Shown: positions 3,583 through 39,332 of the stretch, in pieces
Layout: each line of letters starts with the position of its first letter
How positions within the stretch are numbered: position 1 is the first letter of the stretch
From: an uncultured bacterium
GTDB taxonomy: Bacteria; Patescibacteriota; Minisyncoccia; Phycocordibacterales; GWA1-40-21
Assembly (NCBI GenBank): GCA_903850545.1
Contig: CAINLW010000057.1
Location: forward strand, 1 to 44,450
DNA length: 44,450 bases
Direction: 5' to 3'
The notes under the pieces: generated by a model
Databases searched by the model: none
The model's input: only the letters and a program-made list of their open reading frames with translations
Told to the model about the DNA's origin: nothing
Program-made: the position numbers and the translations under genes

Positions 3583-3622
3583 GTATAATACTATATACCT
3601 TATACTAAATACTATATACTAT
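3583..3622 (-). repeat. GTAT-rich post-stop element, copy a (after nusA)
   Basis: Minus strand reads ATAGTATATAGTATTTAGTATAAGGTATATAGTATTATAC, beginning on the nusA TAG stop codon. Confidence 0.7.
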
Positions 3623-4803
3623 TTTTCTTCTTCTACCTCCACATATTCTCCTTCAACTGAAATTATGTCAATTTTCCAACCAGTTAGTTTTGCTGCTAAG
3701 CGAACGTTTTGACCACCTTTTCCGATAGCCAATGATTGTTGGTCTGATGCTACTTCTACTTGAGCTTTCTTTTCTACATCATCTGTGGTTACAGAAAGAA
3801 TTCTAGCAGGGGATAAGGCTTCCTCAATAAACTTTTTTGGGTCAGGAGACCATTCTATGATATCTATTTTTTCTCCACCAAGTTCAGACATTACTGTAGA
3901 AACTCTTACTCCTCTTTGTCCAACAAGCGAACCGACAGGATCAATATGTTCATCTTTTGAAGCAACGGCGATTTTTGATCTTGAACCAGCTTCTCTTGCG
4001 ATTGATTTTAATTCTATTACACCTGTCCCCAATTCAGGAGACTCTGTTTTAAATAATTCTTCTAAGAATTTTGGATGAGATCTTGAGAGTCTCAAGAAAA
4101 TTCCTTTTGGTGTTTCTTCTACTCTGTAAAGGTATCCTCGAATTCTTTCTCCAGGTTTATATTTTTCGCCAGGGATTTGTTCTTCAAAAGGCAATATAGC
4201 AGTAGCTCTTCCCATATCTACAAAAAGATTTCCTCTTTCAAGTCTCTGTACTATACCTGTAACGATAGAACCTTCTTTTTCTCCATATTCATTAAATACG
4301 GAAACTTTTTCTGCCTCTCTAATTTTTTGGACTATCACTTGCTTTGCTGTTTGTGCAGCAATTCTTCCATAGTCACTTTTTTCTTCAAGAGGGAAGATTA
4401 ATTCGTCTCCAACCTTTGCATCCTTTTTAATTTTTTTGGCATCTTCAATAAAAATATGATGTTCAGGATTGTAGTAGACAATTTTTTCTCCTTTTTCATT
4501 TAATTCTACCTTTTCTTCTTCAATTTTTCTTGATCTTTTAAATTTTTCTTCTGCTTCAGTATCCTCTTTTTCTTCACGGATAACTACACTGTCTTTATCC
4601 ACGACTGTTTTTACTTGGATGAATTCCATTTTTCCAGAAGTGAGATCTACTTTTGATCTGATAATTTGTCCCCTTTTTCCGAACTCTTTTTTGTAAGCAG
4701 TTGCCAGTGCCATTTCAATAGCTTCAAGCATTTTTGCTTTAGGAATTCCTCTTTCTTGTTCCATCTGTTCTATAACAGAGTTTATTACTTTTAAATCGAT
4801 CAT
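3619..4803 (-). CDS. nusA: Transcription termination/antitermination factor NusA
   Basis: NusA N-terminal domain (IEQMEQERGIPKAKMLEAIEMALATAYKK), S1 domain (GSIVTGIVQRLERGNLFVDMG) and two KH domains (VGQRGVRV and AIGKGGQNVRLAAKLTGWKIDI). Confidence 0.93.
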   Translation of the reverse strand: MIDLKVINSVIEQMEQERGIPKAKMLEAIEMALATAYKKEFGKRGQIIRSKVDLTSGKMEFIQVKTVVDKDSVVIREEKEDTEAEEKFKRSRKIEEEKVELNEKGEKIVYYNPEHHIFIEDAKKIKKDAKVGDELIFPLEEKSDYGRIAAQTAKQVIVQKIREAEKVSVFNEYGEKEGSIVTGIVQRLERGNLFVDMGRATAILPFEEQIPGEKYKPGERIRGYLYRVEETPKGIFLRLSRSHPKFLEELFKTESPELGTGVIELKSIAREAGSRSKIAVASKDEHIDPVGSLVGQRGVRVSTVMSELGGEKIDIIEWSPDPKKFIEEALSPARILSVTTDDVEKKAQVEVASDQQSLAIGKGGQNVRLAAKLTGWKIDIISVEGEYVEVEEEK

Positions 4804-4902
4804 GATAATTTTTTAGCGAATGGCAGTGAGCTTAGAAAATTATCACCCCGTCAAATTGGCTTTACATTTGACCGGGGTGGCTCTAATACTTACCACCCAT
4901 TC
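4804..4902 (-). promoter_or_regulatory. Conserved structured 5' leader, nusA copy (same family as 22172-22296 and 38768-38905)
   Basis: Minus strand: GAATGGGTGG-taagtattagag-CCACCCCGGTCAAAT-gtaaagcca-ATTTGACGGGGTGATAATTTTCTAAGCTCACTGCCATTCGCTAAAAAATTATC-ATG. It has four helices equivalent to those of the pilB leader, with compensatory substitutions. Confidence 0.5.
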
Positions 4903-4920
4903 AATTAATTAATAATATTT

Positions 4921-4957
4921 TCACCCTAGTCAAATATAAATTCAATTTGACGGGGTT
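4921..4957 (-). repeat. Extra upstream copy of the leader P3 hairpin
   Basis: Minus strand: AACCCCGTCAAAT-tgaatttat-ATTTGACTAGGGTGA. Same arms as the proximal hairpin at 4846-4880. Confidence 0.55.
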
Positions 4958-5126
4958 AAATAAAATATAGTCGCATAAGCTCCTTATTTTATTTAAAAAA
5001 ATGAGCTCGCCACCGGCGAACTTCAATACAGACATATTAACAAAATTTTATTATTTGTCAACGATTAAATTATTCTTTTAGTAACTTAATTACATGTGTA
5101 ATATTAAAGAAATAACTATCCTCTCT

Positions 5127-5148
5127 CAATTACGCTATAGCTGAATTG
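5127..5148. repeat. 22-bp near-palindromic site, copy A (inverted relative to copy C)
   Basis: CAATTACGCTATAGCTGAATTG is the exact reverse complement of copy C at 5696-5717. It is preceded by CCTCTCTC, mirrored by GAGAGAG after copy C. Confidence 0.8.
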
Positions 5149-5237
5149 GGAAAGTAAAGTTGTTAAAAAAGAAAGTGATATACCCAAATATTCAAATAGT
5201 AATTTGTAAGAAAATAGGAACGTTTAGTTTAAATTTG

Positions 5238-5259
5238 CAATTCAGCGATAGCTTAATTG
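5238..5259. promoter_or_regulatory. 22-bp near-palindromic site, copy B (candidate operator upstream of the 5286 gene)
   Basis: CAATTCAGCGATAGCTTAATTG differs from copy C at 2 positions. It ends 12 nt upstream of a TATAAT at 5272-5277, which sits 8 nt before the ATG at 5286. Confidence 0.5.
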
Positions 5260-5285: not shown

Positions 5286-5666
5286 ATGACAAGAAAACTA
5301 ATTTATAAAGGAATTGAAGTTAATTCGTTTGGTATTCCGAAATTTGTATTACCAAAGAAACAACCTGAATCTAAAAGAACAAAGAGAATTTTTAATGAAA
5401 CCTTCTCTTCCGATTTAAATGAACATTCACCAAAAAATTTAATAGTCATTTATGATATTCCAGAACCAAAGAAAAAAGAAAGAGATTGGTTTCGCAGACA
5501 TTTAAAAAAGTTTAATTATGTAATGATACAAAGAAGTGTATGGGTAGGTCCGTCTCCACTACCTAAAGATTTTCTTAAATACGTAAAATCGATTGGTTTA
5601 GAAAACCAGTTAAAAACATTTAAATTAGCCAGAGAGTATTCTGACAATGACAATTTTATTAAATAA
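5286..5666 (+). CDS. Small Cas2-fold / PaaX-C-terminal-like protein (orphan, no CRISPR array nearby)
   Basis: Core NLIVIYDIPEPKKKERDWFRRHLKKFNYVMIQRSVWVGPSPLPKDF follows the pattern (I/V)xYDIP...R..(L/F)RR.L...G(F/Y)..(L/I)Q.SVW. I associate that pattern with Cas2-like ferredoxin-fold and PaaX C-terminal domains. Recognised from memory, not searched. Confidence 0.45.
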   Translation: MTRKLIYKGIEVNSFGIPKFVLPKKQPESKRTKRIFNETFSSDLNEHSPKNLIVIYDIPEPKKKERDWFRRHLKKFNYVMIQRSVWVGPSPLPKDFLKYVKSIGLENQLKTFKLAREYSDNDNFIK

Positions 5667-5695
5667 TTATTTGTGGTTAGTTAATAATGTTTTTG

Positions 5696-5717
5696 CAATT
5701 CAGCTATAGCGTAATTG
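5696..5717. repeat. 22-bp near-palindromic site, copy C
   Basis: CAATTCAGCTATAGCGTAATTG lies 30 nt after the stop of the 5286-5666 gene. It is a direct repeat of copy B and inverted relative to copy A. Confidence 0.8.
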
Positions 5718-8769: not shown

Positions 8770-11700
8770 ATGAAAATTAATCCTTTTTTTAGTTCAAAGA
8801 AGAATATCATAATAACTACAACAAGCATTTTTCTTATATTTTTTGGATTTTTTTATTTAGTTATTAATCAAAATAAAACTAGAATTATTCCAGACCCACC
8901 AAAACTAACATCACCAATAGAATCAAAGTCAGTATTACAAGCACCACTGGTTACAGAGACATCTTCAATTAAAGCAATTACATCAAATTTACCTGAGTTG
9001 TCGAGCATAATTATTTCGCCAAAAACATCCGTAGAAAATGTGTCAACTTCATCACTGCCATCTCCGACTTATTCAAAACAAACATATACACCAATTAAAT
9101 CTGAATATCCTAAACAGGTTATTGTCACACTTAAACCTTTGGCTGATGTAGAATCTGTGAAGGAAATTATTATAAAAAATGGTGGAAAAATAATTGATGT
9201 AAAAAACTGGCCAACAGGCAAAGTTATTATTGCAAATTATCCCGATAAAAAAACAGAGGAAGCTATTTATAGCAATTCATTATTCTCAAATTTAATGCGA
9301 GGAGTTGGATTTTCTTCTTTTGGAAATAAATTAAATGAAAGTGTAAATCTTATAGAGGAAGATGTGGAGACTGCACCATTGGCACAGATAACTGATTGGG
9401 GGGCAATCTATGTAAGGGCAGACAAAGCTTGGAGTGCCGGCGTGTTAGGAGAAGGAGTCAAAGTTGCAATTTTGGACACTGGTTCTCAGAAGGATCTTCT
9501 TGATACTTCGGCAAATATAGTAAAAGGTGCAAATTTTACAACTAATAAAACAACAGGAACAGTTGACAGCACTCAATGGGATGATGACGATGGTCACGGT
9601 ACTTCTATGGCAGGAATAATTGCAGCAGTAAACAATAATATTGGTGTCAACGGCATCGCACCTAAAGCAGATTTGTATATAGGTAAGGTTTTAGGCGGGG
9701 CATCTAGTACATGTATGAGTAGTTGTATCGTTGATGGTATTTATTGGGCAGTAAGTGAGGGTGTGGATGTAATAAATATGAGTCTAACTGCAGGAATTGG
9801 TAATTCAGCACTCGCAACCGCAGTAAAGTATGCTTATGATAACGGTGTTGTTGTCGTAGCTTCTAGTGGAAACGGAGGGCTTGATGGAGAGGGAATTAAT
9901 GCTCCCGCGATATATCCAGAGGTCATTGCTGTTGGTGCAATTGGAACTGATAACCTACGGGCCGCTTTTAGTTCTTATGGTTCACAACTTGAGCTCGTTG
10001 CTCCAGGAGACGGAATCATTGTGCCTCAGAGAGGAAATGTTTTCGGTGTAAGCAGAGGAACATCAGATTCAGCACCATTTGTAACTGGAGTGGTAGCACT
10101 TGTTTTATCTAAATATCCTACTATGACTCCAGTTGAGGTTCGTGCAAAACTGAACTCTTCGGCTATTGACCTTGGTGAACCCGGATGGGATAAATATTAT
10201 GGTTACGGATTGGTAAATGCACAAGACGCGCTAACCACAAGACCTCCTGCAAAAATAACACTCATTACTCCAAGTGGAGGTGAGCGCTGGATGAAAGGCG
10301 TTCAACATGAGATTCGATGGAGTTCGGACACTTTAACAAGTGAGGATTGGGTAAGTATCAAATTAATAAATAAGGATAACGGAGTCATGTATCCTGTTGG
10401 TATAAATATTAATAATAGTGGCAGTTTTATGCTTGCTATTCCTACGGATAAACCAGATTCTAGCAGTTATTATGTTGAGGTAAGTTGTGGAACCGATTTT
10501 ATAGGAACTTGTCAGTCATCAAAAAGTGAGACCTTCTCTGTTTTTTCACCACCTAGTACTCAAGCATTTAAAGTTTTTTCTCCAAATGGAGGTGAGAAGT
10601 GGCCACAAGGGGCGACTACATCTATAGAGTGGACAGCAAATTATCTCGGGGGATCTAATGTTGACGTTACTCTTATGCAAACACAACAAATACCAAAATA
10701 TTCTCTCAAGTCTCAGTCTGGAGATTGGGATAATGCGGTCTATCAATTTTTTGCCGAGCCTACACCCGGTTACTTTAATTGGTATTGGGTTTATAAATAT
10801 CTTGGAATTCGTGCGGACAACTGGTCCCGTGAGTCCGGTAGTTATTGGTTAGAGAAGTTACCAACTGATACTTGTGATGGTAATATTGGTACAGATATTA
10901 ATAATGGCATTTATGTATGTCCAAAAATTTCTTTATCAACGAGTACTTTTAGTTGTGTGGATTTTGCAAAATCAACAAAAAAGCCCAATGACTATTGGAG
11001 ACGTACTGTTAGTTGCGAATACAACAATAGTGATGTTGGAACAGAAGTCCCAGTATATTCTCTTGTTTTTGGCTCAGAGATTCGCACCCCATATTACTCC
11101 GGTTCGGGATGGTTTATCGGCAATCCACCAAAAGCAGATATGGTCGGTTATTTATACACGAGTAACACATCACCACCAGTAGCTCAGTATGATACTATAA
11201 GTTCAATGCCACCAGACACTTGTGATGGTGATTCCTCGCCCGCAGCAACTACAGGAATGTATTCTTGTCCAAAAACTAGCACGAGTGAACATATAAGATG
11301 TGTAGATACATGGCAGGCAACTCAGGGGATATACTATCAGGGTTATGTTGATTGTTCTTATATAAATGCAGGTGGAACAATACCACGTTATTCAATCAAG
11401 TCTCAATCGGGTGATTGGGATTATAATTCTTACTATGCATATATTGCCACCCCTTTTGTCGATAAGCCCACTCCTGCTTATTGGGTTTATAAGAATGTTA
11501 GAGATTTTAATTATTGGGATTCAGGTAAGTGGTCTGCGATCCATGATACTTGCGACGGTAATATTGGTACAGATATTAATAATGGCATTTATGTATGTCC
11601 TACCGTTTCTCCAGCGTCAAGTACTTTTAGTTGTACGGATATTGCAAGATCAAAAACTATGCCAGATAAGTATTGGGAGCGTAATGTTACTTGCCAATAT

Positions 11701-14700
11701 AATAACAGTGATATAGGAACTAAAGCACCCGTATATTCTTTTGTTAATGCGACGACCACTTGTTTTGATCCAACGTCAGGTTATTGTACGAATAGTTACT
11801 ACGGCACTAAGATGGACCTAGTTGGTTGGTATCTTGAAAATGGTGTTCCTTATATAAAATTAATACCACCCCCACCAGACACTTGCGATGGTAATGGTGG
11901 TAAGTATGTGGAAGGAGGATTGTTTCAATGTCCAACTACTTATACACAAGAACATTTGAAATGTGTAGATATATGGAAAGCATCAAATTATGATACCAGT
12001 AGTATGATTTATCAATCTAAAGTTGATTGTTCTTATGCAAAAAGTGGAACAGTTGATGTACCATATTCTCCAATACTAACAAACCCTGAGCCGGTGCTAA
12101 TAAAAGAAGTTCCTGTTAAAACACTAGCGGAAAATGCTGTAAATAAAGGATCTGCACAAGTTGTTTTACCTAGTGATATATCCGGTGACAAATATCGCGT
12201 GAAGATTAGTTGTAATAACTTTGCGGGCGAATGCACAGATGGATTTAGTACTAGTCAATTTAATATTGTTAAACTACAATCCCCAAAAACTCTAACTATT
12301 AGCAAAACTGGTATTGGTAATATTGTTGGTGGAAACACACCTTGTAACGTCAACTTGTCTTCGTGTGAACAAAAATATGAGACTTTAAATGAAGTAAATT
12401 TAACCAATGAAGTAAATTTAACTGCTGATGTACCTAGTAATTCTGGTTTGATGTTTGTTAGTTGGGAGGGGGCATGTACTGGTACTGACAAAGATAAGTG
12501 CAAAATCACGATGGATAGTGATAAAACTGTAAAAGCAAAATTTTCTAATAAATATCTTACTCTTACTGCGGTTACGGCTGATCCACTATCAAAATTTTAT
12601 GGCTGGGTCGGTGATTGTATTACTGATGGAACCTGCGAACCATTTTGGTCTGAAAAATGTGGTGTTGGGAGTGCTGATAAATGTCAAATCGTGGTAAGTA
12701 GTGATCAATCGCTTTCACCGATATTTAAATCTCTAAGTCCTTGCACAGCAGATTCATATGAATATTCAACATATGGAATTTGTGAACCAAACGGTAAACA
12801 GTATAAAACCGTTACAAATATACCAGATTGTTCAGGTGGAGTTAGTCCAACAAATTTGAGCAATAGTTGTACATATGTACCGCCAACTAATAGTATTAAT
12901 TTAACTGGTGACGCATGGTCAGACACTATTGGCTGGATAAGTTTTAGAGGAAAGACTTCTTCTCAGCCAGCTACTTCAATTTTAGGAACAACCGGTGACA
13001 ATCCTACAGCCATAACAGTAGATAAGGCTGGTAATGTTTATACAGCAAACACAGGATCAGGTAATATCACCAAAATTACTCCAACTGGTGTAGTAACCAA
13101 TATTGGAAGCTCAATTAATTCGACAACTATATTGGGGATAGCAGTCGACTCAGTTGGTAATATTTATACAACAGATGAGGAAACAAATAATGTTACCAAA
13201 ACTACCCCAGCGGGTGTATCAACTCATATTTTAAGCCCCGGTGAAGGGACTCGTGGAGTTGTAACCGATTCAGCCAACAATGTTTATGTCACGAATTCTC
13301 AATCAAATAATATTACAAAAATTACTCCAGCAGGCGTGTCATCTATTTTTGCCACAATAGCAAAATTTGGGTCTTATCCTTCTGGTATAGTTATGGATTC
13401 GGCTGGTAACTTTTATACAGGAAATGGTAATTCAAAGAGTGTTGGTAAAATTACCACAAACGGCGTATCTACCATTTTTGGAAATACAGGAATTGGTCCA
13501 TATAACATAGCAATAGATAAATTCGGTAATATTTATACAGCAAATGCAGATTCATTTGATATTACTAAAATTACTCCTGCTGGTGCAACAACCACCTTTG
13601 CAACTTTTAGTTCTAGCCCAGGTAGTATAATAACCGATTCTATTGGTAATGTTTACGTTACGATTCAAGGCGTTATTATAAAAATTTCTCAAGATGGCAA
13701 ACAAAAAATTTATGCAAGTATCGGAGCTTCCGCTATTACAATAGATTCGTCTGACAATATTTATGCAATCACGAGTTCTGATGATTCGAGCACAGTTACC
13801 AAAATATCACTTGTTGAAGGGCCAGAGTACGGTGTTTCTATGGACAAATCGACAGGGGTTCTCAATGGTTATGCGTGGTCTGATAATATTGGATGGATAA
13901 AATTTGGTACTGATTTGTCTGGCTTTCCAATTAATGATAATGGCGGATCAGTCTCAGTAAGTGCCAGAATAGTTTCAGGTAAACTTGTTGGTTGGGCAAG
14001 AGCTTGTGCAGGAATGTATGATACTGAACAAGACCAAACATCACCAAACAATAGTTGTAGTGGAAGATCTAGAACAGACGGTTGGGATGGCTGGATTAGT
14101 TTTAAAGGATTTGGTACACATGGATCTTCCTACGAAGTTTCGTTTAATAATCCAAATTTTTCAGAGTATGCTTGGGGATCTGATGTAGTAGGCTGGATTA
14201 GTTTTAATGGAACTACTGCTGATGGTAATACTTATGGAGTAAAACTAGAATCAACAGATACCTCTTTAACAGACATTTCTTTAATAGCACCACCTAGTAT
14301 AAGTGCAAGTCCTTCTTATATTTTTAAAAACAGTACATCAACCATTACTTGGAGTTCACCCGATGCAAGTTCTTGTACTTTTAAAAAAGGAGATGTATCA
14401 ATTGATATTGGCACGACTGCGACTTCTGGTTCTTATATAACAGAGAGACTTAATACCGCTACAGTTTATACTGCTATTTGTTCAAACAGCAATCATACTG
14501 CAACTGGAATAAATTCGGCGACGGTAAATATAAAGCCAAATCCTGATTGCAACATTAATAATGAATGCTCAGATGGGTATTGGGGACTTTGTATTAATGG
14601 AACACAAACTTGTGTTGATGGAGGATATAAATATACATGTGACGCTCCAACAAAAAAATGTGTTGTTGGTGGCGTTGATGGTGGCGGAGGCAGAGGCAAC

Positions 14701-15330
14701 TGTCAGGGATTAATATATTCAGAGTGGATGCCAGAAACATGTCCTGATTCAGGAGTTAATATGGGGCAACGCACAAGAACAGTAATTGATGGATATCCAT
14801 CAGGGTGTAACACCGATGAAGATTTTAAAATGTTAATTCAAAAATGTACTCAAGGTAGTTCAAAATGTGAATCATATTCTTATGATTGGGGTTCGTGTCT
14901 AGGTTCTGATGAAAAAGAAACAAGTACTTTCGGCACGATGACAGTGACGGGAATACCTCTCGGATATCCAGAAGGTTGTTCTGGAGGTGAAGTTGAACCA
15001 ATAACATCCCAATCTTGCGGTTCACTTGTCCCAAAATCAACTTGTTTAGTTCCAGAAAATAATATTGTAAATAAAAATACACTTTGGAAGATAACACAAT
15101 CTTTTGATCCACTAAGTATTATAACCAGAAAATGGAGTGGTAAAAATGTATCCCAAACTTCTGGAGATATACCATATTTAAATAAAATTTATACAAAAGT
15201 TGGATTAAAAGATATGAACGTTGAAACAACCGGAACTATCTCAGTAGATTCAGTGGTACAAACATTTACATCATATTGTTCAACTTCAACAATGATGAAA
15301 CTAGATGACGGGGCGAATCAGGAGAGGTAA
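8770..15330 (+). CDS. Giant (2186 aa) membrane-anchored subtilisin-like (S8) serine protease fused to repeat, NHL-propeller, Cys-rich and PKD-like modules
   Basis: Order of parts: N-terminal TM helix; I9-like propeptide (VIVTLKPLADVESVKEIIIKNGGKI); S8 triad Asp in VAILDTGS (codon 9475), His in HGTSMAGIIAA (9595), Ser in GTSDSAPFVTG (10063); two P.GGE.W...I.W Ig-like modules; a 226-aa super-repeat x2 with DTCDG motifs; two InlB-B-repeat-like modules; seven GN(I/V)Y(T/V).....(I/V)TKITP.G blades (12960-13810); GYAWSDNIGWIKFG / GWISF repeats; four-Cys modules; PKD-like C-terminus. Confidence 0.85.
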   Translation: MKINPFFSSKKNIIITTTSIFLIFFGFFYLVINQNKTRIIPDPPKLTSPIESKSVLQAPLVTETSSIKAITSNLPELSSIIISPKTSVENVSTSSLPSPTYSKQTYTPIKSEYPKQVIVTLKPLADVESVKEIIIKNGGKIIDVKNWPTGKVIIANYPDKKTEEAIYSNSLFSNLMRGVGFSSFGNKLNESVNLIEEDVETAPLAQITDWGAIYVRADKAWSAGVLGEGVKVAILDTGSQKDLLDTSANIVKGANFTTNKTTGTVDSTQWDDDDGHGTSMAGIIAAVNNNIGVNGIAPKADLYIGKVLGGASSTCMSSCIVDGIYWAVSEGVDVINMSLTAGIGNSALATAVKYAYDNGVVVVASSGNGGLDGEGINAPAIYPEVIAVGAIGTDNLRAAFSSYGSQLELVAPGDGIIVPQRGNVFGVSRGTSDSAPFVTGVVALVLSKYPTMTPVEVRAKLNSSAIDLGEPGWDKYYGYGLVNAQDALTTRPPAKITLITPSGGERWMKGVQHEIRWSSDTLTSEDWVSIKLINKDNGVMYPVGININNSGSFMLAIPTDKPDSSSYYVEVSCGTDFIGTCQSSKSETFSVFSPPSTQAFKVFSPNGGEKWPQGATTSIEWTANYLGGSNVDVTLMQTQQIPKYSLKSQSGDWDNAVYQFFAEPTPGYFNWYWVYKYLGIRADNWSRESGSYWLEKLPTDTCDGNIGTDINNGIYVCPKISLSTSTFSCVDFAKSTKKPNDYWRRTVSCEYNNSDVGTEVPVYSLVFGSEIRTPYYSGSGWFIGNPPKADMVGYLYTSNTSPPVAQYDTISSMPPDTCDGDSSPAATTGMYSCPKTSTSEHIRCVDTWQATQGIYYQGYVDCSYINAGGTIPRYSIKSQSGDWDYNSYYAYIATPFVDKPTPAYWVYKNVRDFNYWDSGKWSAIHDTCDGNIGTDINNGIYVCPTVSPASSTFSCTDIARSKTMPDKYWERNVTCQYNNSDIGTKAPVYSFVNATTTCFDPTSGYCTNSYYGTKMDLVGWYLENGVPYIKLIPPPPDTCDGNGGKYVEGGLFQCPTTYTQEHLKCVDIWKASNYDTSSMIYQSKVDCSYAKSGTVDVPYSPILTNPEPVLIKEVPVKTLAENAVNKGSAQVVLPSDISGDKYRVKISCNNFAGECTDGFSTSQFNIVKLQSPKTLTISKTGIGNIVGGNTPCNVNLSSCEQKYETLNEVNLTNEVNLTADVPSNSGLMFVSWEGACTGTDKDKCKITMDSDKTVKAKFSNKYLTLTAVTADPLSKFYGWVGDCITDGTCEPFWSEKCGVGSADKCQIVVSSDQSLSPIFKSLSPCTADSYEYSTYGICEPNGKQYKTVTNIPDCSGGVSPTNLSNSCTYVPPTNSINLTGDAWSDTIGWISFRGKTSSQPATSILGTTGDNPTAITVDKAGNVYTANTGSGNITKITPTGVVTNIGSSINSTTILGIAVDSVGNIYTTDEETNNVTKTTPAGVSTHILSPGEGTRGVVTDSANNVYVTNSQSNNITKITPAGVSSIFATIAKFGSYPSGIVMDSAGNFYTGNGNSKSVGKITTNGVSTIFGNTGIGPYNIAIDKFGNIYTANADSFDITKITPAGATTTFATFSSSPGSIITDSIGNVYVTIQGVIIKISQDGKQKIYASIGASAITIDSSDNIYAITSSDDSSTVTKISLVEGPEYGVSMDKSTGVLNGYAWSDNIGWIKFGTDLSGFPINDNGGSVSVSARIVSGKLVGWARACAGMYDTEQDQTSPNNSCSGRSRTDGWDGWISFKGFGTHGSSYEVSFNNPNFSEYAWGSDVVGWISFNGTTADGNTYGVKLESTDTSLTDISLIAPPSISASPSYIFKNSTSTITWSSPDASSCTFKKGDVSIDIGTTATSGSYITERLNTATVYTAICSNSNHTATGINSATVNIKPNPDCNINNECSDGYWGLCINGTQTCVDGGYKYTCDAPTKKCVVGGVDGGGGRGNCQGLIYSEWMPETCPDSGVNMGQRTRTVIDGYPSGCNTDEDFKMLIQKCTQGSSKCESYSYDWGSCLGSDEKETSTFGTMTVTGIPLGYPEGCSGGEVEPITSQSCGSLVPKSTCLVPENNIVNKNTLWKITQSFDPLSIITRKWSGKNVSQTSGDIPYLNKIYTKVGLKDMNVETTGTISVDSVVQTFTSYCSTSTMMKLDDGANQER
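10690..12060 (+). repeat. Intragenic tandem super-repeat (2 x about 678 nt), each unit containing two DTCDG modules
   Basis: Unit 1 starts near KYSLKSQSGDWD and unit 2 near RYSIKSQSGDWD. A 44-nt stretch GGTAATATTGGTACAGATATTAATAATGGCATTTATGTATGTCC is identical at 10879-10922 and 11557-11600 (offset 678 nt), while the flanks are diverged. Confidence 0.85.
12388..12423 (+). repeat. In-frame 18-nt tandem duplication
   Basis: AATGAAGTAAATTTAACC followed by AATGAAGTAAATTTAACT, encoding NEVNLT NEVNLT. Confidence 0.9.
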
Positions 15331-15332
15331 AA

Positions 15333-15369
15333 TTAGTATATAGTATATGTATTTAGTATAAGGTATAAG
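15333..15369 (+). repeat. GTAT-rich post-stop element, copy b
   Basis: TTAGTATATAGTATATGTATTTAGTATAAGGTATAAG starts 3 nt after the TAA of the giant gene. Confidence 0.7.
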
Positions 15370-15417
15370 AAGATACAATAAAAAAGAGTTTGTTATTAAC
15401 GAACCCCTATTAATTGA

Positions 15418-19807: not shown

Positions 19808-22066
19808 ATGACTAAATCACTAAAACAAAATTTAATAATTCTAGGTATAGCAGGATTAATATTAATTTGTATATTCTACGTATTGCCAATATTGAAAGTT
19901 GGAGCACAGACAGTTTTATATAAAGGAATTGTTTTTGGAACTCCGAGTTCTTCGAACCCAACATTTAATTGTTCACCATGGGTTAATGATTTAGGAGCTT
20001 TTATACAAAGTTCTTCAAGTCTTACACATATTAATTATCAAGGCAATTATAGTACCCAAGATGCAGCTATTGTTGCTTCTGTAAATTCTTTGTCAAACTG
20101 TTTGACTACAGGTGGTTTTACAGAAATGTTGAATAATACTCAATTTACATCTTATACTGGGCGTGGTTGTGTCGGGACAAATTGTTGTTTAGCTTTGGGC
20201 TATAACACCAATGGAAGATATTGGATAAAGAGTTCTCTTGCTGGCGCATACGCCCCTTATTCTGCGTGTGGCAGTTCTTACTCCTGTTCTTACAGTGGAG
20301 TATTTCAGGAATATAATTTCATGAGTCCAAACTTATCAATGAAGTCAGTCGGGCCACTACACTATTCAAATGCTACTGAGTGTCCAAATGTAACTTCTGG
20401 TTATTTCCAAAATTTTACTACGAACGTACAAATTCCGATGTTTCAGCAGAAAACTATTTCTGTCTGTACTACAGATTCGTATACATATTCTGATTGGGGT
20501 GCTTGTCAACCTGAAGGAAAAAGATATGAAACGGTAATTAATTCGCCAAATTGTATAGACGGTGTGGCTCCAATATTAAATCAAGACTGCACTTATTCAG
20601 TTGTGAATAATGAAGTTTTTTTGACAGCACCTGTTAATAATGCCAGTTTTTTAACTGGTTATGCATGGTCAGATAATATGGGTTGGATAAAATTTGGAGA
20701 CTTGTTAGGTTTCCCATCAACAGTAGGAACTACAGCATCGGATGCAAAAATAGTTGGAAACAATATAGTCGGATGGGCGAGAGCATGTATTGGAACAAAA
20801 TTTGGTGATTGTTCCACTATGGAAAACACTACTACTGGTGATTGGAATGGATGGATAAGCTTTAAGGGAACAGGCTATGGCGTTTCAGTGGATAATGATG
20901 GAAACCTCTCAGGCTATGCCTCTGGTTTTGATATGATTGATTTTACAGGAGTTAAATTATCGCAAGCTATTGTTCCGCAGACAGTAGCCACATCTACAAT
21001 TGTAAATGTAATAGCCTCTCCTTCTGTAACGGTAAATTTTTATATCACACCTTCTCCTATAACTATTTTATCAGGAGCTTCCACAACTCTTTATTGGAGC
21101 TCAACCAACGCTGATTCTTGTAGTTTTAAAAAGGGAGAAGATGCATTTAATACTGGCGTAACTGCAACGTCAGGTTCTGTCACATCAGGAATTCTCAATA
21201 ACACAACATCTTTTTCTGCCACTTGTTCAAATAGCGATCATTCAGCAACAAAGACGACTTCTTTGACTGTGAATGTGGCCCCTCCTTGTAAGGGCGTTAC
21301 TGCTTGCAATCCAACTTCTTGGGGAGAATATGGATCTTGTGGTTTGAATGGAGTAAAAACTAGAACTTGCAAAGAAGGAGGTTACTCTATGACCCCAGCT
21401 GGATGTATAGGTTCTGTATCAGCACCAATAGGGATAACAACACTCGGTTGCAATGGTTGTTCTGGGCCAGATTGTACATGCATAGGGTATGATTATGAAT
21501 GGACACCAGAAACTTGTCCTGCCGAAGGTTATAGGACTCCAGTTACACCAATAAAAACTCATTATATTATTTGTCCTAGTGAAAATCCACCACTTGAAAA
21601 ACAATCATGTATACCAAAGAGCAGTCCTTGTACTGGCTACAATTATGACAATTCTTCAGAAGTTTGCGAAGATGGCATAATAGTCAAAACTATAGATTCT
21701 GGTATTCCAAATGGATGTTCTGGTGGTGTAGAACCTACTCTGGTAGATTTCTGCCCTGTTAATGGAGGATCAGGAACAGTTGGATCATATTGTATTGCTT
21801 CACAAGCACAAGGTCCAGATATTAATGGAAAATTCTTAGTAAACAAAAACACAAAATGGACAATGAGAAACCCTATGGGAGCGGTAACTGTTGATAAATG
21901 GAATGGCACCAATGTTTTGAATTTGATAGGAAATCCGCTAGAGAAAATTTATACAACAGTTGGTACAAAAATTATTACTGGTACTGGTGAAGTTAATGGC
22001 GAAACAACATACTGTCATGCAACCACAACAATGAAAGTGGGTCCAACTTCTGGAGGGGAGATATAA
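19808..22066 (+). CDS. Membrane-anchored/secreted Cys-rich surface protein, paralogue of the C-terminal half of the 2186-aa protein
   Basis: N-terminal TM helix. Module order is shared with 13860-15330: CTTDSYTYSDWGACQPEGKRYETV (compare CTADSYEYSTYGICEPNGKQYKTV), GYAWSDNMGWIKFG, GWARACIG, GWISFKG, an Ig-like ...LYWSSTNADSCSFKKGE... module, four-Cys modules, and a PKD-like C-terminus VNKNTKW...KIYTTVG...TYCHATTTMKV. Confidence 0.65.
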   Translation: MTKSLKQNLIILGIAGLILICIFYVLPILKVGAQTVLYKGIVFGTPSSSNPTFNCSPWVNDLGAFIQSSSSLTHINYQGNYSTQDAAIVASVNSLSNCLTTGGFTEMLNNTQFTSYTGRGCVGTNCCLALGYNTNGRYWIKSSLAGAYAPYSACGSSYSCSYSGVFQEYNFMSPNLSMKSVGPLHYSNATECPNVTSGYFQNFTTNVQIPMFQQKTISVCTTDSYTYSDWGACQPEGKRYETVINSPNCIDGVAPILNQDCTYSVVNNEVFLTAPVNNASFLTGYAWSDNMGWIKFGDLLGFPSTVGTTASDAKIVGNNIVGWARACIGTKFGDCSTMENTTTGDWNGWISFKGTGYGVSVDNDGNLSGYASGFDMIDFTGVKLSQAIVPQTVATSTIVNVIASPSVTVNFYITPSPITILSGASTTLYWSSTNADSCSFKKGEDAFNTGVTATSGSVTSGILNNTTSFSATCSNSDHSATKTTSLTVNVAPPCKGVTACNPTSWGEYGSCGLNGVKTRTCKEGGYSMTPAGCIGSVSAPIGITTLGCNGCSGPDCTCIGYDYEWTPETCPAEGYRTPVTPIKTHYIICPSENPPLEKQSCIPKSSPCTGYNYDNSSEVCEDGIIVKTIDSGIPNGCSGGVEPTLVDFCPVNGGSGTVGSYCIASQAQGPDINGKFLVNKNTKWTMRNPMGAVTVDKWNGTNVLNLIGNPLEKIYTTVGTKIITGTGEVNGETTYCHATTTMKVGPTSGGEI

Positions 22067-22140: not shown

Positions 22141-22167
22141 TTGAACTTAATTATTTTCTGGTATAAT
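22141..22167 (+). promoter_or_regulatory. Putative pilB operon promoter (extended -10)
   Basis: TTGAAC (22141-22146), 15-nt spacer, TGgTATAAT (22159-22167). Sits directly upstream of the structured leader. Confidence 0.5.
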
Positions 22168-22171: not shown

Positions 22172-22296
22172 GAGAATGATTTGGTAACGAGAGTTACCCC
22201 AGTGAAATATCCGCTTAAGGCGGATTCCAGCAGTAGCTGGATTTCACAGGGTGATGATTTTCTAAAGCTCATTATCATTCGCTAAGAAAATCAATC
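22172..22296 (+). promoter_or_regulatory. Conserved structured 5' leader, pilB copy
   Basis: P1 GAATGAT (22174-80) pairs with ATCATTC (22274-80). P2 GGTAAC-gaga-GTTACC. P3 CCCaGTGAAAT (22198-208) pairs with ATTTCACaGGG (22241-51) and encloses two small hairpins. P4 GATGATTTTCT (22253-63) pairs with AGAAAATCAATC (22285-96), ending on the ATG. Confidence 0.5.
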
Positions 22297-24063
22297 ATGA
22301 TCCTAGAAAACAAACAACTAAAAGATTTTTTAATTGATACAGGTCTTGTTACAAAGACAGAGTATGATGAAATTGAAAATCTTTACAATAAGGGAAAAAT
22401 AGTAGATCCTCCAGAAAAGGTCTTGGTCAGTCAGGGAAAAATTTCTGAAGATGATTTGCGTAGAGCTCAGGCTTACGTGTCGGGTATTCCTTTTGTTGAT
22501 TTAAAAGATCAAAAAATCGATTTGTCTGTGCTTTCTCTTATCCCAGAACCCCTAGCAAGAAAGAATAATATAATAGCTTATAGAAAAAACATTGATTCGC
22601 TTGAAGTGGCGATGCTTGATATTCAAAATTTATCTACGATTGAATTTGTAAAAAAGAAAGTTGGACTAAAAATTTTACCGAGATTGACCGATTCTTCGTC
22701 AATAAAAAATGCAATACTTCAATATCAAAAAAGTTTGAAAGCAGAGTTTGGCGATTTGATACAAAAAGATATCCAATCTTTAAAAGATTCCGGTAGTTTG
22801 GAGATTGGAGTAAAAGGGGAGAGTATGGAAGATTCTTTGAAAAAAATGGCAGAAGATATTCCCATTGTTCGTATTGTTGAAACGCTTTTAAAACACGCAG
22901 CTTTACAAAACGCTTCAGATATTCACATCGAATGTATGGAAAATGACGCGCTTGTCAGATATAGAATTGATGGACTTTTGCATGACGCGATGATTCTTCC
23001 AAAAATTGCCGCCACCGGTATAACCGCTAGAATAAAAGTGCTTTCAAATTTAAAACTTGATGAAAAAAGGTTACCGCAAGACGGAAGATTTAATGCCGAT
23101 ATTAATGGAGAAAAAGTTTCTTTTAGAGTTTCTATCATACCGACATATTTTGGAGAAAAAACGGTTATGCGACTTTTGCGAGAAAATGCTGGTTCGTATT
23201 CTTTAGAGACTATGGGTTTTCACGGCGTAAATCTTGAAAGATTACATGAAGCAATGAAGCAAGCAAATGGAATGATTCTTACAACAGGTCCAACAGGAAG
23301 TGGAAAAACAACAACTCTTTATACAATATTAGAGTTACTTAATTCAGTAGGTGTAAACATTGCAACGATTGAAGACCCGATTGAATATCAGGTGGCTAGA
23401 ATAAACCAAACTCAGGTAAAACCCGAAATTGGTTTTTCTTTTGCAAATGGACTTAGATCTTTAGTAAGACAAGATCCAGATATAATAATGGTGGGGGAAA
23501 TTAGAGATAATGAAACAGCTTCTCTTGCTGTGAACGCTGCTCTTACTGGTCATGTGGTGCTTTCAACTCTTCACACAAACTCGGCTGCCGGAGCTATACC
23601 GAGGCTTATGGATATGAAAATCGAACCTTTTCTTCTTGTTTCAACCATAAATATTGTTATTGCTCAGAGACTAATAAGAAAGCTTACAGGAGCAAAAGAA
23701 AGATATATTTTAACAAAAGACGAATTGGCATCTCTCGCGAGAATTGTAGATTTGGATAAAGTTTTGGCAATATTAAAAGAGGAAAATATTGTTGGAAAAA
23801 ATGACGACTGGAAAAATATCTATTTTTATAAAGCGAAAGAATCAATAGATTCAAAAGACGGTTATTCTGGAAGAATTGGAATTCACGAGGTATTGAAAAT
23901 GACACCAGCAATAAGGGATCTTGTTATAAAGGGATCAACTTCTCAAGACATTGAAAATCAGGCAAAAAAAGAAGGAATGTTAACGATGATTGAAGACGGG
24001 ATTTTTAAATGTGTAACAGGAATGACGACAATTGAGGAAGTTTTGAGGGTCGTTACGGAGTAA
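22297..24063 (+). CDS. pilB: Type IV pilus assembly ATPase (GspE/PilB family)
   Basis: GSPII_E N-terminal-like region. Walker A GPTGSGKTTT, Walker B/Asp box RQDPDIIMVGEIRD, His box LTGHVVLSTLHTN. Confidence 0.93.
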   Translation: MILENKQLKDFLIDTGLVTKTEYDEIENLYNKGKIVDPPEKVLVSQGKISEDDLRRAQAYVSGIPFVDLKDQKIDLSVLSLIPEPLARKNNIIAYRKNIDSLEVAMLDIQNLSTIEFVKKKVGLKILPRLTDSSSIKNAILQYQKSLKAEFGDLIQKDIQSLKDSGSLEIGVKGESMEDSLKKMAEDIPIVRIVETLLKHAALQNASDIHIECMENDALVRYRIDGLLHDAMILPKIAATGITARIKVLSNLKLDEKRLPQDGRFNADINGEKVSFRVSIIPTYFGEKTVMRLLRENAGSYSLETMGFHGVNLERLHEAMKQANGMILTTGPTGSGKTTTLYTILELLNSVGVNIATIEDPIEYQVARINQTQVKPEIGFSFANGLRSLVRQDPDIIMVGEIRDNETASLAVNAALTGHVVLSTLHTNSAAGAIPRLMDMKIEPFLLVSTINIVIAQRLIRKLTGAKERYILTKDELASLARIVDLDKVLAILKEENIVGKNDDWKNIYFYKAKESIDSKDGYSGRIGIHEVLKMTPAIRDLVIKGSTSQDIENQAKKEGMLTMIEDGIFKCVTGMTTIEEVLRVVTE

Positions 24064-24621: not shown

Positions 24622-25830
24622 ATGAAATTTAAATTCAAAGCGGTAAAAAAAGATGGAGGAAAATATGAAGGGGAAAAAGAATCCGCTGATAGATTTTCTC
24701 TATACGAGGAATTAAAAGCGGAGGGAGATACACTTCTTTCTACAGTTGAAGTAAAAAAATCAAAAATAGAAATTAACCTACCCTTTTTTAATTATGTACC
24801 TGAGCATCAAAAAATAATTTTTGCGCAAAATTTGGGATCAATGATAAATGCAGGATTGTCTCTTGCAAAGGCTTTAAATATTTTGCAAAAACAAATAAAA
24901 AATAAAAGATTTAAACAAATTATTGAATCACTTGAACAAAATGTAAGAAACGGAAAAACCTTGAGTCAATCTTGTTCGGAATTTCCAGATGTGTTTCCAA
25001 AATTATTTACATCAATGGTTAAGGCAGGTGAGGAGTCTGGACGACTTTCTCAATCATTGAAAATAGTTGCAACCCAATTAGATAATAGTTATAAACTAAA
25101 AAAGAAAATAAAGGGAGCAATGATATATCCTGGAATTATTATGTCCGTAATGATTGTTATCGGAGTACTTCTGATGATTGTGGTAGTGCCAAGTATTACA
25201 GCTACTTTTAAAGATTTAAATATAGAACTACCTTTTCTTACCAAGGCTATTATAGCAATAAGTGATTTTCTTAAAAATGATATTCTCCTTGTTCTTTTCG
25301 GTGTAATAATTATTATTACTGGTTTTTACTTATTTCTTAAATCAAAATTTGGTAAAAGAGTATTTGATTTTACAGTTTTAAAACTACCTGTTATTGGCGA
25401 GCTTGTAAAAGAAACAAATTCTGCGAGATTAACCAGAACCATTTCTTCTTTGTTGTCTTCCGGTGTTTCTTATACTGAAGCAATTTCGATTACAAGAGAT
25501 GTTGTTCAAAATAGATATTATAAAGATATTTTGACTACTGCTATGAGTACGGTAGAAAAAGGGGGTGCGATTTCAAGTGTTTTTATTGAAAACGAAAAAT
25601 TGTGTCCAATCTTTCTTGCCGAGATGACCGTTGTTGGAGAAGAAACAGGAAAGCTTCCCGAAATGCTTCTAGAGGTAGCACTTTTTTATGAAGAAGTTGT
25701 GGATCAAAAAACAAAAAATATGTCGACGATTATTGAACCTGTTTTGATGGTGATTATAGGAATTGCTGTAGGATTTTTTGCATTAGCAATTATAAAACCG
25801 ATTTATTCTTTGACGGATTCAATACAATAA
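24622..25830 (+). CDS. pilC: Type IV pilus platform protein (GspF/PilC family)
   Basis: Two T2SS-F repeats (FAQNLGSMINAGLSLAKAL... and LTRTISSLLSSGVSYTEAI...), three TM segments and a length of 402 aa, typical of PilC. Confidence 0.92.
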   Translation: MKFKFKAVKKDGGKYEGEKESADRFSLYEELKAEGDTLLSTVEVKKSKIEINLPFFNYVPEHQKIIFAQNLGSMINAGLSLAKALNILQKQIKNKRFKQIIESLEQNVRNGKTLSQSCSEFPDVFPKLFTSMVKAGEESGRLSQSLKIVATQLDNSYKLKKKIKGAMIYPGIIMSVMIVIGVLLMIVVVPSITATFKDLNIELPFLTKAIIAISDFLKNDILLVLFGVIIIITGFYLFLKSKFGKRVFDFTVLKLPVIGELVKETNSARLTRTISSLLSSGVSYTEAISITRDVVQNRYYKDILTTAMSTVEKGGAISSVFIENEKLCPIFLAEMTVVGEETGKLPEMLLEVALFYEEVVDQKTKNMSTIIEPVLMVIIGIAVGFFALAIIKPIYSLTDSIQ

Positions 25831-25860
25831 ATAGTATAAGGAATTAGTATAAGTATATAG
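25831..25860 (+). repeat. GTAT-rich post-stop element, copy c
   Basis: ATAGTATAAGGAATTAGTATAAGTATATAG begins at the first nt after the pilC TAA. Confidence 0.7.
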
Positions 25861-25911
25861 AAATACAAAATACGGATGCAAATGAAAATTAAAAAATAAA
25901 TTAAAGACAAA

Positions 25912-26370: not shown

Positions 26371-26372
26371 TA

Positions 26373-26402
26373 ATAGTATTAGTGTCTAGTATAAGTATAA
26401 GG
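26373..26402 (+). repeat. GTAT-rich post-stop element, copy d
   Basis: ATAGTATTAGTGTCTAGTATAAGTATAAGG starts 3 nt after the pilin TAA and ends 10 nt before the next ATG. Confidence 0.7.
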
Positions 26403-26412
26403 AAAATTTTAA

Positions 26413-27637: not shown

Positions 27638-27640
27638 GAA

Positions 27641-27670
27641 ATAGTATACAGTATAAGTATTTAGTATATG
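27641..27670 (+). repeat. GTAT-rich post-stop element, copy e
   Basis: ATAGTATACAGTATAAGTATTTAGTATATG starts 4 nt after the TAA and runs into the ATG at 27668. Confidence 0.7.
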
Positions 27671-32277: not shown

Positions 32278-32280
32278 CTG

Positions 32281-32313
32281 TAGTATAAGTATTTAGTATT
32301 AGTATAAAAATAC
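32281..32313 (+). repeat. GTAT-rich post-stop element, copy f (left inverted repeat of the four-helix-bundle cassette)
   Basis: TAGTATAAGTATTTAGTATTAGTATAAAAATAC starts 4 nt after the metG TAA and ends at the ATG at 32314. It contains the 18-nt GTATTTAGTATTAGTATA (32289-32306). Confidence 0.75.
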
Positions 32314-32679: not shown

Positions 32680-32683
32680 TAAT

Positions 32684-32717
32684 TTATACTAATACTATAT
32701 ACTAATACTAAATACTA
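32684..32717 (-). repeat. GTAT-rich element, copy g, inverted (right inverted repeat of the four-helix-bundle cassette)
   Basis: The reverse complement reads TAGTATTTAGTATTAGTATATAGTATTAGTATAA. Positions 32698-32715 are the perfect reverse complement of 32289-32306. Confidence 0.75.
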
Positions 32718-33490: not shown

Positions 33491-33500
33491 TATTTAGTAT
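33471..33500 (+). repeat. GTAT-rich post-stop element, copy h
   Basis: TATTTAGTATAAGTATATAGTATTTAGTAT overlaps the last codons and the TAG of tatD. Confidence 0.7.
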
Positions 33501-33501
33501 T

Positions 33502-33529
33502 GTCATTCCCGTGAAGACGGGAATCCAGG
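33502..33529 (+). repeat. GTCATTCCCG-type palindromic element, third copy
   Basis: GTCATTCCCGTGAAGACGGGAATCCAGG, compared with GTCATTCCCGCGAAGGCGGGAATCTAGG at 2341. The stem changes are compensatory (CGCG..GGCG becomes CGTG..GACG). Confidence 0.75.
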
Positions 33530-33573
33530 TTCATGTTTTGTATTCTTTCATTTTCTGCTATAGTTTAACTATA

Positions 33574-36962: not shown

Positions 36963-36968
36963 TGAAAA

Positions 36969-39328: not shown

Positions 39329-39332
39329 TAAA

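Follow-up and report, generated by a model that had tools for sequence, protein, structure and literature searches.

Several described systems resemble parts of the element reported here. The Correia repeats of Neisseria, the enterobacterial ERIC sequences and the pneumococcal BOX elements are multi-copy, modular inverted repeats of ~100-200 bp that insert at variable distance and in both orientations. In the split ribosome-binding sites of phage T4 genes 38 and 25, a hairpin between a Shine-Dalgarno (SD)-like sequence and the AUG shortens the effective distance. Hairpins at the 5' terminus act as stabilizers in the leaders of E. coli ompA and B. subtilis aprE and ermC. The nusA gene of B. subtilis is autoregulated through NusA-dependent terminators in its leader, and bacteria of the candidate phyla radiation (CPR) have reduced ribosomes. 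We analyzed a 44,450-nucleotide stretch of DNA from an uncultured bacterium (contig CAINLW010000057.1; the window, below) and found copies of one modular element, made of inverted repeats, directly before the start codons of nusA, pilB and rplK.

On the reading that we tentatively favor, this element is a clade-specific, multi-copy leader cassette found in Paceibacteria, which acts on messenger RNA (mRNA) beside the start codon. The same anatomy recurs from copy to copy, in a constant register with start codons and before a recurring set of genes, and hairpins L, P3 and P4 show compensatory change. This recurrence is not due to chance.

Read 5' to 3', the element often begins at a terminator or an upstream stop codon and continues with hairpin L, UUAA, P3, 1-2 nt, P4 and the AUG. 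Hairpin L in full copies has an AU stem such as AGAAAAAUA/UAUUUUUCU and the loop AAGGAGCGAAGCGAC. The P3 consensus is CCC(C)-x-GUSAAAU ... AUUUSAC-y-GGG(G). Its interior, 9-132 nt in length, takes one of three forms: a loop of 9 nt, an insert of 72-76 nt, or one to two small hairpins drawn from a few recurring modules whose order varies between copies. P4 has the consensus GAUGAUUUUU ... AAAAAUCAAUC with the loop UAUAGUCGCUUCGCUCCUUA, and its 3' strand occupies the 9-11 nt before the AUG. Many copies lack hairpin L or lie directly behind a promoter. In approximately 10 copies, including those of nusA and pilB, hairpin L is replaced by P2 and the 5' strand of P1. The four-helix layout (P1 to P4) that the first-pass annotation had proposed is present at nusA and pilB, but across the family it fits only this subtype of ~10 copies, and the element proved larger and far more widespread than had been supposed. 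One copy (L020, 2721-2900, minus strand; L numbers denote loci compared with the window) has a P2 5' strand of the pilB type (GUAAC) and a 3' strand of the nusA type (GCCACC), with P2 broken. It looks chimeric, which suggests recombination between subtypes.

The copies in the window and the features around them are as follows.

5034-5061, minus strand: promoter-like site of nusA, TTGACA (5061-5056), 16 nt and TAATAT (5039-5034), with TG before the -10; 10/12 matches.
4994-5022, minus strand: terminator-like hairpin AGTTCGCC-GGT-GGCGAGCT with a T7 tract, outside the repeat family.
4958-4994, minus strand: hairpin L, AU stem AAAUAAAAUA / UAUAUUUUAUUU with the loop AGGAGCUUAUGCGAC (the "box"), present in the minimum free energy (MFE) fold of the full leader.
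4955-4945 and 4935-4924, minus strand: P3', an upstream hairpin of the P3 type, CCCCGTCAAAT / ATTTGACTAGGG, 21 nt before P1.
4903-4923, minus strand: AU-rich linker UGAAAAUAUUAUUAAUUAAUU, conserved among nusA leaders (..ACAUUAUUAAUUAAUU..).
4902-4898 and 4822-4818, minus strand: P1, GAATG / CATTC; the 5' strand pairs inside the P4 loop, giving a pseudoknot with P4.
4897-4893 and 4880-4876, minus strand: P2, GGTGG / CCACC, with a 12-nt loop.
4875-4866 and 4856-4846, minus strand: P3, CCGGTCAAAT / ATTTGACGGGG, the GC-clamped core hairpin of the family.
4844-4836 and 4812-4804, minus strand: P4, GATAATTTT / AAAATTATC; the 3' strand ends at nusA position -1.
3619-4803, minus strand: nusA open reading frame (ORF), 394 aa, ATG 4803-4801, with NusA_N, S1 and KH_5 domains.
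22141-22167, plus strand: promoter-like site of pilB, TTGAAC, 15 nt and TGG-TATAAT (extended -10).
22174-22296, plus strand: pilB copy, with P1 GAAUGAU (22174-22180) / AUCAUUC (22274-22280) and P2 at 22183-22198.
22199-22251 and 22253-22296, plus strand: P3 of the pilB copy, with two inner hairpins, and its P4, followed by the ATG at 22297.
38769-38905, plus strand: rplK copy, with P3 arms at 38769-38780 and 38853-38863 and P4 at 38865-38903, followed by the ATG at 38906.
38798-38826, plus strand: promoter-like site in the P3 interior of the rplK copy, TTGCAT, 17 nt and TGa-TATAAA.

We found all four helices and the extra upstream hairpin that had been assigned to the nusA leader, at these coordinates and on the minus-strand reading. 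The leader is compound: promoter, terminator-like hairpin, hairpin L, P3', linker and P1/P2/P3/P4 follow one another 5' to 3'. P3 (4846-4875) has the arms CCGGUCAAAU and AUUUGACGGGG around a 9-nt loop, and P4 (4804-4844) pairs GAUAAUUUU with AAAAUUAUC across the 23-nt loop CUAAGCUCACUGCCAUUCGCUAA. The 3' strand of P2 is alternatively able to extend P3 as CACCCC:GGGGUG. P3', written as CCCCGUCAAAU, a 9-nt loop and AUUUGACUAGGG, has the same arms as P3 and a fold energy of -11.2 kcal/mol (z = -2.9). The arms of P3' and P3 may also cross-pair (4846-4955, minus strand), so that the region could adopt either two local hairpins or one long nested duplex, in which the outer 5' arm of P3' pairs with the 3' arm of P3. 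The tandem arrangement, first described for the window alone, is conserved in the nusA leaders of four other genomes; it is common to L097, L002 and L021 and decayed in L115.

The pilB copy stands before an ORF for a T2SSE ATPase (22297-24063). It carries the counterparts of the nusA helices that had been reported, and the joining strands GGTGAT, CTAA(A)GCTCA and CATTCGCTAA are common to both copies. P1 begins 7 nt past the extended -10 of the pilB promoter-like site, which was not listed by a consensus scan because of its 15-nt spacer. The first-pass annotation had spoken of three copies. The rplK copy is indeed present, 6 nt after the nusG stop codon, but it consists of P3 and P4 only; P1, P2 and hairpin L are missing, the P3 interior is 72 nt long and the P4 loop is different. 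The promoter-like site in that interior implies that its transcripts would lack the 5' arm of P3. Other interiors of 72-76 nt also carry promoter-like boxes, and in L034, L055, L059 and L077 a -10-like box lies just before the 3' arm. Read-through transcripts of such copies would be able to form P3, and transcripts from the internal promoter would not. A covariance model (R1) gave scores of 57.5, 62.9 and 74.1 bits to the nusA, pilB and rplK copies, respectively. The purine-purine mismatch that had been noted before the P3 clamp is found in the three window copies but varies across the family, where this position is A.G, A.A, U-A, C-G, U.G or C.A.

The element is widespread in one group of bacteria. 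We scanned one genome per species with an exact 17-base pattern from the core, ATTTSACNGGGTGATNATTT, and at least 111 stretches matched. At least ~60 of these are in metagenome-assembled genomes (MAGs) of Paceibacterota, with about 5-10 or more exact-pattern copies per genome among the matches listed. The host MAGs are Zambryski-, Taylor-, Wolfe- and Nomurabacteria and Minisyncoccia, along with MAGs labelled 'Saccharibacteria'. Each Paceibacterota match runs on into the same AU-rich hairpin and then an ATG; among the matches listed, those from other phyla lack the downstream hairpin and ATG. With a covariance model built on the 3' half of the element, we searched 8-kb tiles around the pattern matches, together with the window, and counted copies of 45 bits or more as strong. 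This census contains 73 strong copies in ~25 Paceibacterota genomes, 6 of them without the search pattern. An ORF starts at the end of the match in 72 of the 73, and the orientation is always the same. The relation to gene starts, which had been proposed as a check on the family, is therefore clear, and in most copies P4 ends at ORF position -1. Hairpin L, where present, is abutted by the upstream stop codon in 9 copies, 32-37 nt before P3.

Translation and housekeeping functions predominate among the downstream genes. The Pfam census gave NusA (8 copies), L11 and Fpg (4 each), EF-G, FtsA, SecE and methyltransferase (3 each), and RecA, S7, S12, RuvA and NYN (2 each). By N-terminal sequence only, copies also precede genes for L3, L16, S19, S4, L36, L33, L34 and S18, and for SSB, NDK, ClpP, PNPase, SerRS, PheT, PilB and PilC. 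Successive cistrons of the str operon (rpsL, rpsG and fusA) are each preceded by a separate copy. The genes nusA, rplK, fpg, rpsL, fusA, ftsA, ruvA, secE and recA bear the element in different genera. As a rough estimate, the element stands before ~2-3% of genes, including nusA, rpsL, rpsG, fusA, rplK, rplC, rplP and recA. The mean identity of the 3' half was 0.792 for pairs of copies within one genome, 0.798 for pairs from different genomes that precede the same gene, and 0.785 for the remaining pairs. This uniform value of ~0.79 rules out recent bursts within genomes as well as simple orthologous drift, and it fits selection toward one consensus. The same comparison gave no sign of concerted evolution within genomes.

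We found that two helices are maintained by compensatory change. In a register set by hand, as for three of our pair counts, P3 was paired in 93.9% of cells over 24 distinct arm pairs, and 9 of its 11 base pairs change on both sides. Six of the 24 arm pairs come from divergent nusA leaders that were found through the protein and not the motif. P4 was 95% paired. For each of the two helices, 0 of 500 shuffles reached the observed value, so the covariation in homologues that had been suggested as a check was found. In L135, L138, L144, L157 and L183 the P3 sequence is wholly replaced and the architecture is kept. Copies found independently of the pattern change the basal P4 pairs from GAU/AUC to GGU/ACC, GAA/UUC and AAC/GUU. 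The stems of hairpin L covary as well (AGAAAAAUA/UAUUUUUCU, GGAAACU/AGUUUCC, GAAAAACA/UGUUUUUC and AAUAGAUUA/UAAUCUAUU). The 5' arm of P3 and the 3' arm of P4, which the search left unconstrained, pair in 95-98% of cells, and the equally unconstrained boxes in the L and P4 loops in only 74%. This difference indicates that selection falls on P3 and P4.

The other helices are less well supported. The earlier argument that compensatory changes point to a functional fold holds for P3 and P4 and is weaker for P1 and P2, and an excess of G.U over A.C is not seen. Over the 10 copies of the subtype, P1 is 74% and P2 82% paired; P1 is GAAUG/CAUUC in the window, GAACG/CGUUC in L097 and GAGUGU/ACAUUC in L021. 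RNAalifold on four nusA leaders predicted P3', P4 and a P3 extended by CACCCC:GGGGUG, and did not predict P1 or P2. The extended P3 competes with P2 in nusA leaders and is better conserved. The nusA leader folds beyond its shuffles (z = -3.7 for 105 nt; z = -8.4 for the full 227 nt), and in the pilB leader P2+P3+P4 is the MFE structure (z = -5.8).

A further pairing is visible only in the consensus. The box in the loop of hairpin L is the reverse complement of the box in the P4 loop at consensus level, and the consensus halves could form a duplex of ~19-21 bp. In a fixed register over 22 copies the boxes pair in 74% of cells, compared to 31-47% in slid registers. Shuffled partners are nearly as good (30 of 500 shuffles). 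Complementarity at the consensus without copy-specific covariation indicates that pairing of the boxes as an RNA helix is not maintained in individual copies. The nusA and pilB copies, here called B-type, lack inverted boxes. We rejected a kissing interaction between the L and P4 loops, or a P1 duplex, for the common type (duplex-energy p = 0.12, no covariation and no wobble bias). Pairing of this kind may still occur in the nusA/pilB subtype.

The window host uses essentially no SD sites. An SD-like tetramer (GGAG, GAGG or AGGA) is found upstream of only 3 of 38 window ORFs, and the 20-nt segments that precede window starts contain 50% A and 7% G. A -10-like box is found no more than 60 nt from the ATG in most window genes, with a TATAAT-like box 10-45 nt before it. 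Judged from these sequences, leaders in the window would be very short, and some genes, for example ORF 5286, may have no leader. According to Tsurumaki et al. (PMC9297842), the anti-SD motif is often undetected in Parcubacteria, largely in a group that lacks uL1; this large subgroup appears to be without both uL1 and the anti-SD motif. We did not find rplA (uL1) behind rplK in the window or in L011, L056 and L062, which fits membership of the window genome in the uL1-lacking group. A 16S ribosomal RNA (rRNA) sequence was not found in the window or in the loci. The gene that follows rplK encodes DHFR on the other strand in the window (39329-40173) and is ndk in L011 and L056.

Compared to the systems described above, the element shares features with each. 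Like fourU and ROSE thermometers and autogenous leaders of ribosomal proteins, it places an AU-rich stem (UUUUU/AAAAA) beside the start codon in leaders of translation genes. Unlike them, it involves no SD sequence and never pairs the AUG, and it precedes dozens of unrelated genes, including every cistron of the str operon. It also matches no ribosomal-leader family in Rfam. We rejected an autogenous ribosomal-protein leader, as the same element stands before S12, S7, EF-G, L11, L3, L16 and many non-ribosomal genes, and we identified no rRNA mimicry in it. A survey of ribosomal leaders (PMC7247131) contains no CPR term. The Correia, ERIC and BOX repeats are alike in being intergenic, in carrying promoter-like hexamers, in folding when transcribed and in being present or absent at orthologous sites. 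The element differs from them in ending at a start codon, in keeping one orientation, in recurring at the same housekeeping genes in several genera, and in having copies no more alike within a genome than between genomes. The hairpins of T4 genes 38 and 25 differ in that here the SD-like bases are themselves paired and covarying, the host lacks SD usage and the element occurs genome-wide. As with the ompA, aprE and ermC stabilizers, the mRNA may begin with a stable GC-clamped hairpin; in many copies the distance from a TATAAT-like hexamer to the A of ACCCC is a constant 6-7 nt, often with a terminator just upstream. In contrast to those stabilizers, P3 is coupled to P4 and is also found in tandem and at positions within operons.

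Searches of databases and of the literature gave no counterpart. The Rfam check that had been proposed yielded 0 family matches in the window at gathering thresholds. When the copies before nusA, pilB and L016 fusA were scanned against Rfam 15 by E-value, the only outcome was sub-threshold microRNA and small RNA noise, and the nested P3'/P3 duplex accounts for the matches that resemble microRNA precursors. Phage contigs in IMG/VR gave three chance matches only, and the literature that we searched contains no description of the element. The kinds of system that it resembles, start-region hairpins and transcribed palindromic repeats, are already known. What appears new is the combination, which we did not find described: a modular inverted repeat flush with start codons, at core translation genes, in an SD-less lineage.

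We infer an action of the fold at the RNA level, gating of initiation by P4 and a factor common to the copies. The nusA copy sits downstream of a promoter and attenuator that relatives also have, and intra-operon copies begin at the upstream stop codon; both positions put the element inside transcripts. P4 would pair the stretch that a ribosome without SD contacts needs free. Its end coincides with position -1, and the AUG would be the first unpaired triplet after it. Because the host lacks SD sites and otherwise has short, A-rich, unstructured leaders, P4 would have to open, or be recognized as a structure, before the ribosome starts, and could in this way set or gate initiation. P3 would stack on P4, and a stable P3 could shield the 5' side and insulate it; in copies transcribed from ACCCC onward, it would form a protective hairpin at the 5' terminus. 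That all copies are equally near one consensus suggests a shared partner acting in trans, either the ribosome or a protein, and such a partner would co-ordinate the control of ribosomal-protein genes and other housekeeping genes. The element thus probably controls the use of its mRNAs.

A stronger version of this proposal is that the element is a dedicated ribosome-entry structure for the most-used genes of Parcubacteria that lack SD pairing; we regard it as speculative and improbable. The leader would be fully paired, with P3 on P4, the 5' end shielded and the AUG the first unpaired triplet, and translation would start as on 'capped' leaderless messages or through recognition by a ribosomal component. 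If true, one structure would co-ordinate the synthesis of ribosomal proteins, elongation factors and Nus factors across the genome. For start-codon choice and ribosomal-protein balance in CPR bacteria, the element offers a concrete test object.

Several observations weigh against an mRNA leader cassette. A signature of the RNA strand is not seen: L:R pairing has 42 G.U and 40 A.C, P4 has 3 G.U and 5 A.C, the inner hairpins are almost purely Watson-Crick (3% G.U), and for inner hairpins and whole elements the sense strand folds no better than the antisense strand. The nested helices of the nusA leader reach -21.0 kcal/mol and the MFE fold -32.6 kcal/mol, an alternative that favors the P3 extension. 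The build is that of a modular inverted repeat, and the 3'-half model also matches the opposite strand upstream. Hairpin L and the long P3 interiors contain promoter-like hexamers, so the fold may be incomplete in some transcripts. The closest nusA relatives, L112 and L116 (90-93% amino-acid identity), do not carry the element, which gives it the look of a spreading repeat. As for expression, the sequencing runs that match the window are DNA only, apart from one weak RNA run that represents a different organism and covers rplK coding sequence only, and groundwater metatranscriptomes from the study behind a Zambryskibacteria MAG gave no reads on L016.

One rival reading is a palindromic DNA repeat. 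The element could be similar to a miniature inverted-repeat transposable element (MITE) or to ERIC, Correia or BOX, selfish or domesticated, with hairpins that reflect palindromic DNA and only secondary effects on genes. We consider this unlikely. The terminal inverted repeats typical of MITE, Correia and ERIC sequences are present, and in many copies the 3'-half model gives 20-40 bits to the opposite strand immediately upstream. The boxes, complementary at the consensus, without copy-specific covariation and with G.U equal to A.C, look like two independently decaying arms. Small hairpins in the modular interior are recombined in different orders, close nusA relatives differ in presence or absence (with a decayed copy in L115), and ~5-10 exact-pattern copies occur per genome among the matches listed. 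A-rich direct repeats flank some copies (for example AGAAAAT on both sides), which could equally be ordinary leader sequence. However, 72 of 73 copies at a start codon in one orientation are not expected from random insertion, and the same genes bear the element in different genera. The similar identity within and between genomes leaves no room for recent bursts, the partner arms of P3 and P4 are kept far better than neutral decay allows, no transposase or clear target-site duplication was seen, and the IMG/VR matches are due to chance. A repeat that spread and was later fixed for leader function would satisfy this explanation and the leader reading together, and the two are not fully exclusive. 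With its strict placement on one side and its repeat-like architecture and patchy distribution on the other, the element is a clean case for distinguishing RNA folds that have a function from palindromic repeats that spread. A further reading, a punctuation signal for RNA processing, we think quite unlikely: a ribonuclease such as RNase III would cleave long helices between the complementary halves, or the base of P4 would be cut by a different nuclease, and the separated cistrons would be left with a short leader or none, their AUG lying at the 5' end or close to it. Several intercistronic gaps are filled exactly by the element, with the upstream stop codon against hairpin L in the 9 copies mentioned above. 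A cleavage site would explain why P4 ends at position -1, the consensus halves could pair over ~19-21 bp, and the nusA tandem hairpins are able to form a long nested duplex. In real copies, though, the L:R duplex is only 74% paired, without selection for pairing, and many copies have no hairpin L or stand right behind a promoter. A tRNA-like fold, as in tRNA-type punctuation, was rejected (ARAGORN, 0 genes in the window).

It is distinctly improbable that the element acts as a control region at the DNA level, with hairpin L and the long P3 interiors as promoters and the boxes (GAGCGAAGCGAC and its complement) as sites of one transcription factor. The constant spacing of TATAAT-like hexamers before ACCCC with terminators upstream, the TTGCAT-17-TGaTATAAA site inside P3 of the rplK copy, and the -10-like boxes near most window ATGs are all in keeping with it. 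So is the complementarity of the boxes, which is confined to the consensus and has no wobble bias, as for sites in double-stranded DNA. But the stems of hairpin L covary (GGAAACU/AGUUUCC, GAAAAACA/UGUUUUUC), for which a -35/-10 pair gives no reason, and the variants spoil the -10. An arm spacing of 9-132 nt and a replaceable helix in P3 fit pairing and not a protein site, the strict ATG register points to translation, and the B-type copies have no boxes. Very improbable, in our view, is a split ribosome-binding site, in which the 16S 3' end (AUCACC..) would bind GGGGUGAU and the looping out of ~40 nt by P4 would place this site beside the AUG. The 3' segment of canonical 16S, AUCACCUC, and GGGGUGAU are complementary; P4 starts right after GGGGUGAU and ends at the AUG, and the host lacks ordinary SD sites. 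Copies found without the pattern instead show GGGACGAU, GGGGUGGU, GGGUGAAG and GGGUAACG, in step with their P4 partners, so this segment (GGGUGAU) is kept as a helix and not as a fixed sequence. Its GGG is paired in P3 and its GAU in P4, leaving one or two bases free, and the distant variants L157 and L183 lack the segment altogether. A metabolite-sensing riboswitch is hardly credible, despite the multi-helix leader, the conserved joining strands and the possible alternative pairings (P1 or L against P4; P2 against extended P3). There is no Rfam family match, the downstream genes share no metabolic or transport theme, and small genomes hold 5-10 or more copies (among the matches listed). The P3 interior, which would be the binding pocket, is modular and varies from 9 to 132 nt, and the conserved parts are the helices and the AU-rich P4.

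Three smaller candidates were also considered. P3 is not an intrinsic terminator or attenuator: it is followed by UGAUGAUUUUU with no adjacent U tract, and a terminator scan, which did not list P3 or P3', gave only the separate hairpin at 5004-5022. Short upstream ORFs (an ATG inside GGTGATGATTTT; MRLYFI, 4968-4988) are not conserved between copies. The P4 loop and 3' strand GCUCCUUAAAAAUC resemble GCUCUUUAACAA, the boxA site of Nus factors, and such a role would fit poorly with one copy per cistron.

To examine the distribution at one gene, we recovered 80 nusA loci from metagenomes by means of the NusA protein. In most of them there is a promoter and a GC-rich hairpin bearing a U tract, and the leader is short and A-rich; only ~10 of the 80 contain the element or a variant form. 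In L112 and L116, the attenuator runs directly into ...AAAAATCAAC-ATG. Filled (window) and empty (L112, L116) nusA leaders therefore exist, with diverged flanks. Its absence from the closest relatives indicates that the element was gained or lost recently at this locus, and that duplicative spread is part of its history.

The attenuator itself is a hairpin, AGTTCGCCGGTGGCGAGCT, with a T7 tract behind a TTGACA-type promoter (4994-5061 region of the window, minus strand). Of 73 nusA upstream regions, 37 contain a hairpin of the RTTCGCY form, whose median distance to the ATG is 60 nt. Like the B. subtilis nusA leader, the window leader thus opens with a terminator-like hairpin (4994-5022) that is conserved and common to most relatives. 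It is separate from the repeat family, in which P3 and P3' have no adjacent U tract. From its sequence it looks like a leader attenuator, possibly one for autoregulation by NusA.

The window contains other repeats. A 22-bp near-palindrome, CAATTCAGCTATAGCGTAATTG, occurs three times, once in inverted orientation, at 5123-5148, 5234-5259 and 5692-5717, and its copies flank a small PaaX_M/Cas2-like ORF (5286-5666) that is divergent from nusA. To judge by this arrangement, they could serve the putative PaaX_M/Cas2-like regulator as operator sites or be the termini of a small mobile unit. AGAATTGTCATTCCCGCGAAGGCGGGAATCTAGGTT is found in two copies with 89% identity (2334-2369 and 33496-33531) and contains the hairpin TCCCGC-GAAG-GCGGGA. 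The second copy overlaps the predicted GTG start of ORF 33511-34467, which makes that start doubtful. An ORF of 2186 aa (8770-15330) has internal repeats, with 98-nt units at 13011-13603 and 202-nt units at 10866-11745. It shares short repeats with a 752-aa ORF upstream of pilB (19808-22066), for which we found no Pfam match, and the two ORFs probably encode large surface or pilus-associated proteins. A second intergenic repeat consists of tandem AGTATAAGTAT-like units, for example AATAGTATAAGTATTTAGTATAAGTATAAGGAAA, and is found just upstream of several genes in the pilus region. It occurs at 15331-15385, 25830-25863, 26372-26405, 27639-27693, 32279-32312 and 36966-36999, with further units at ~33470-33510 and, in reverse, at 32680-32716.

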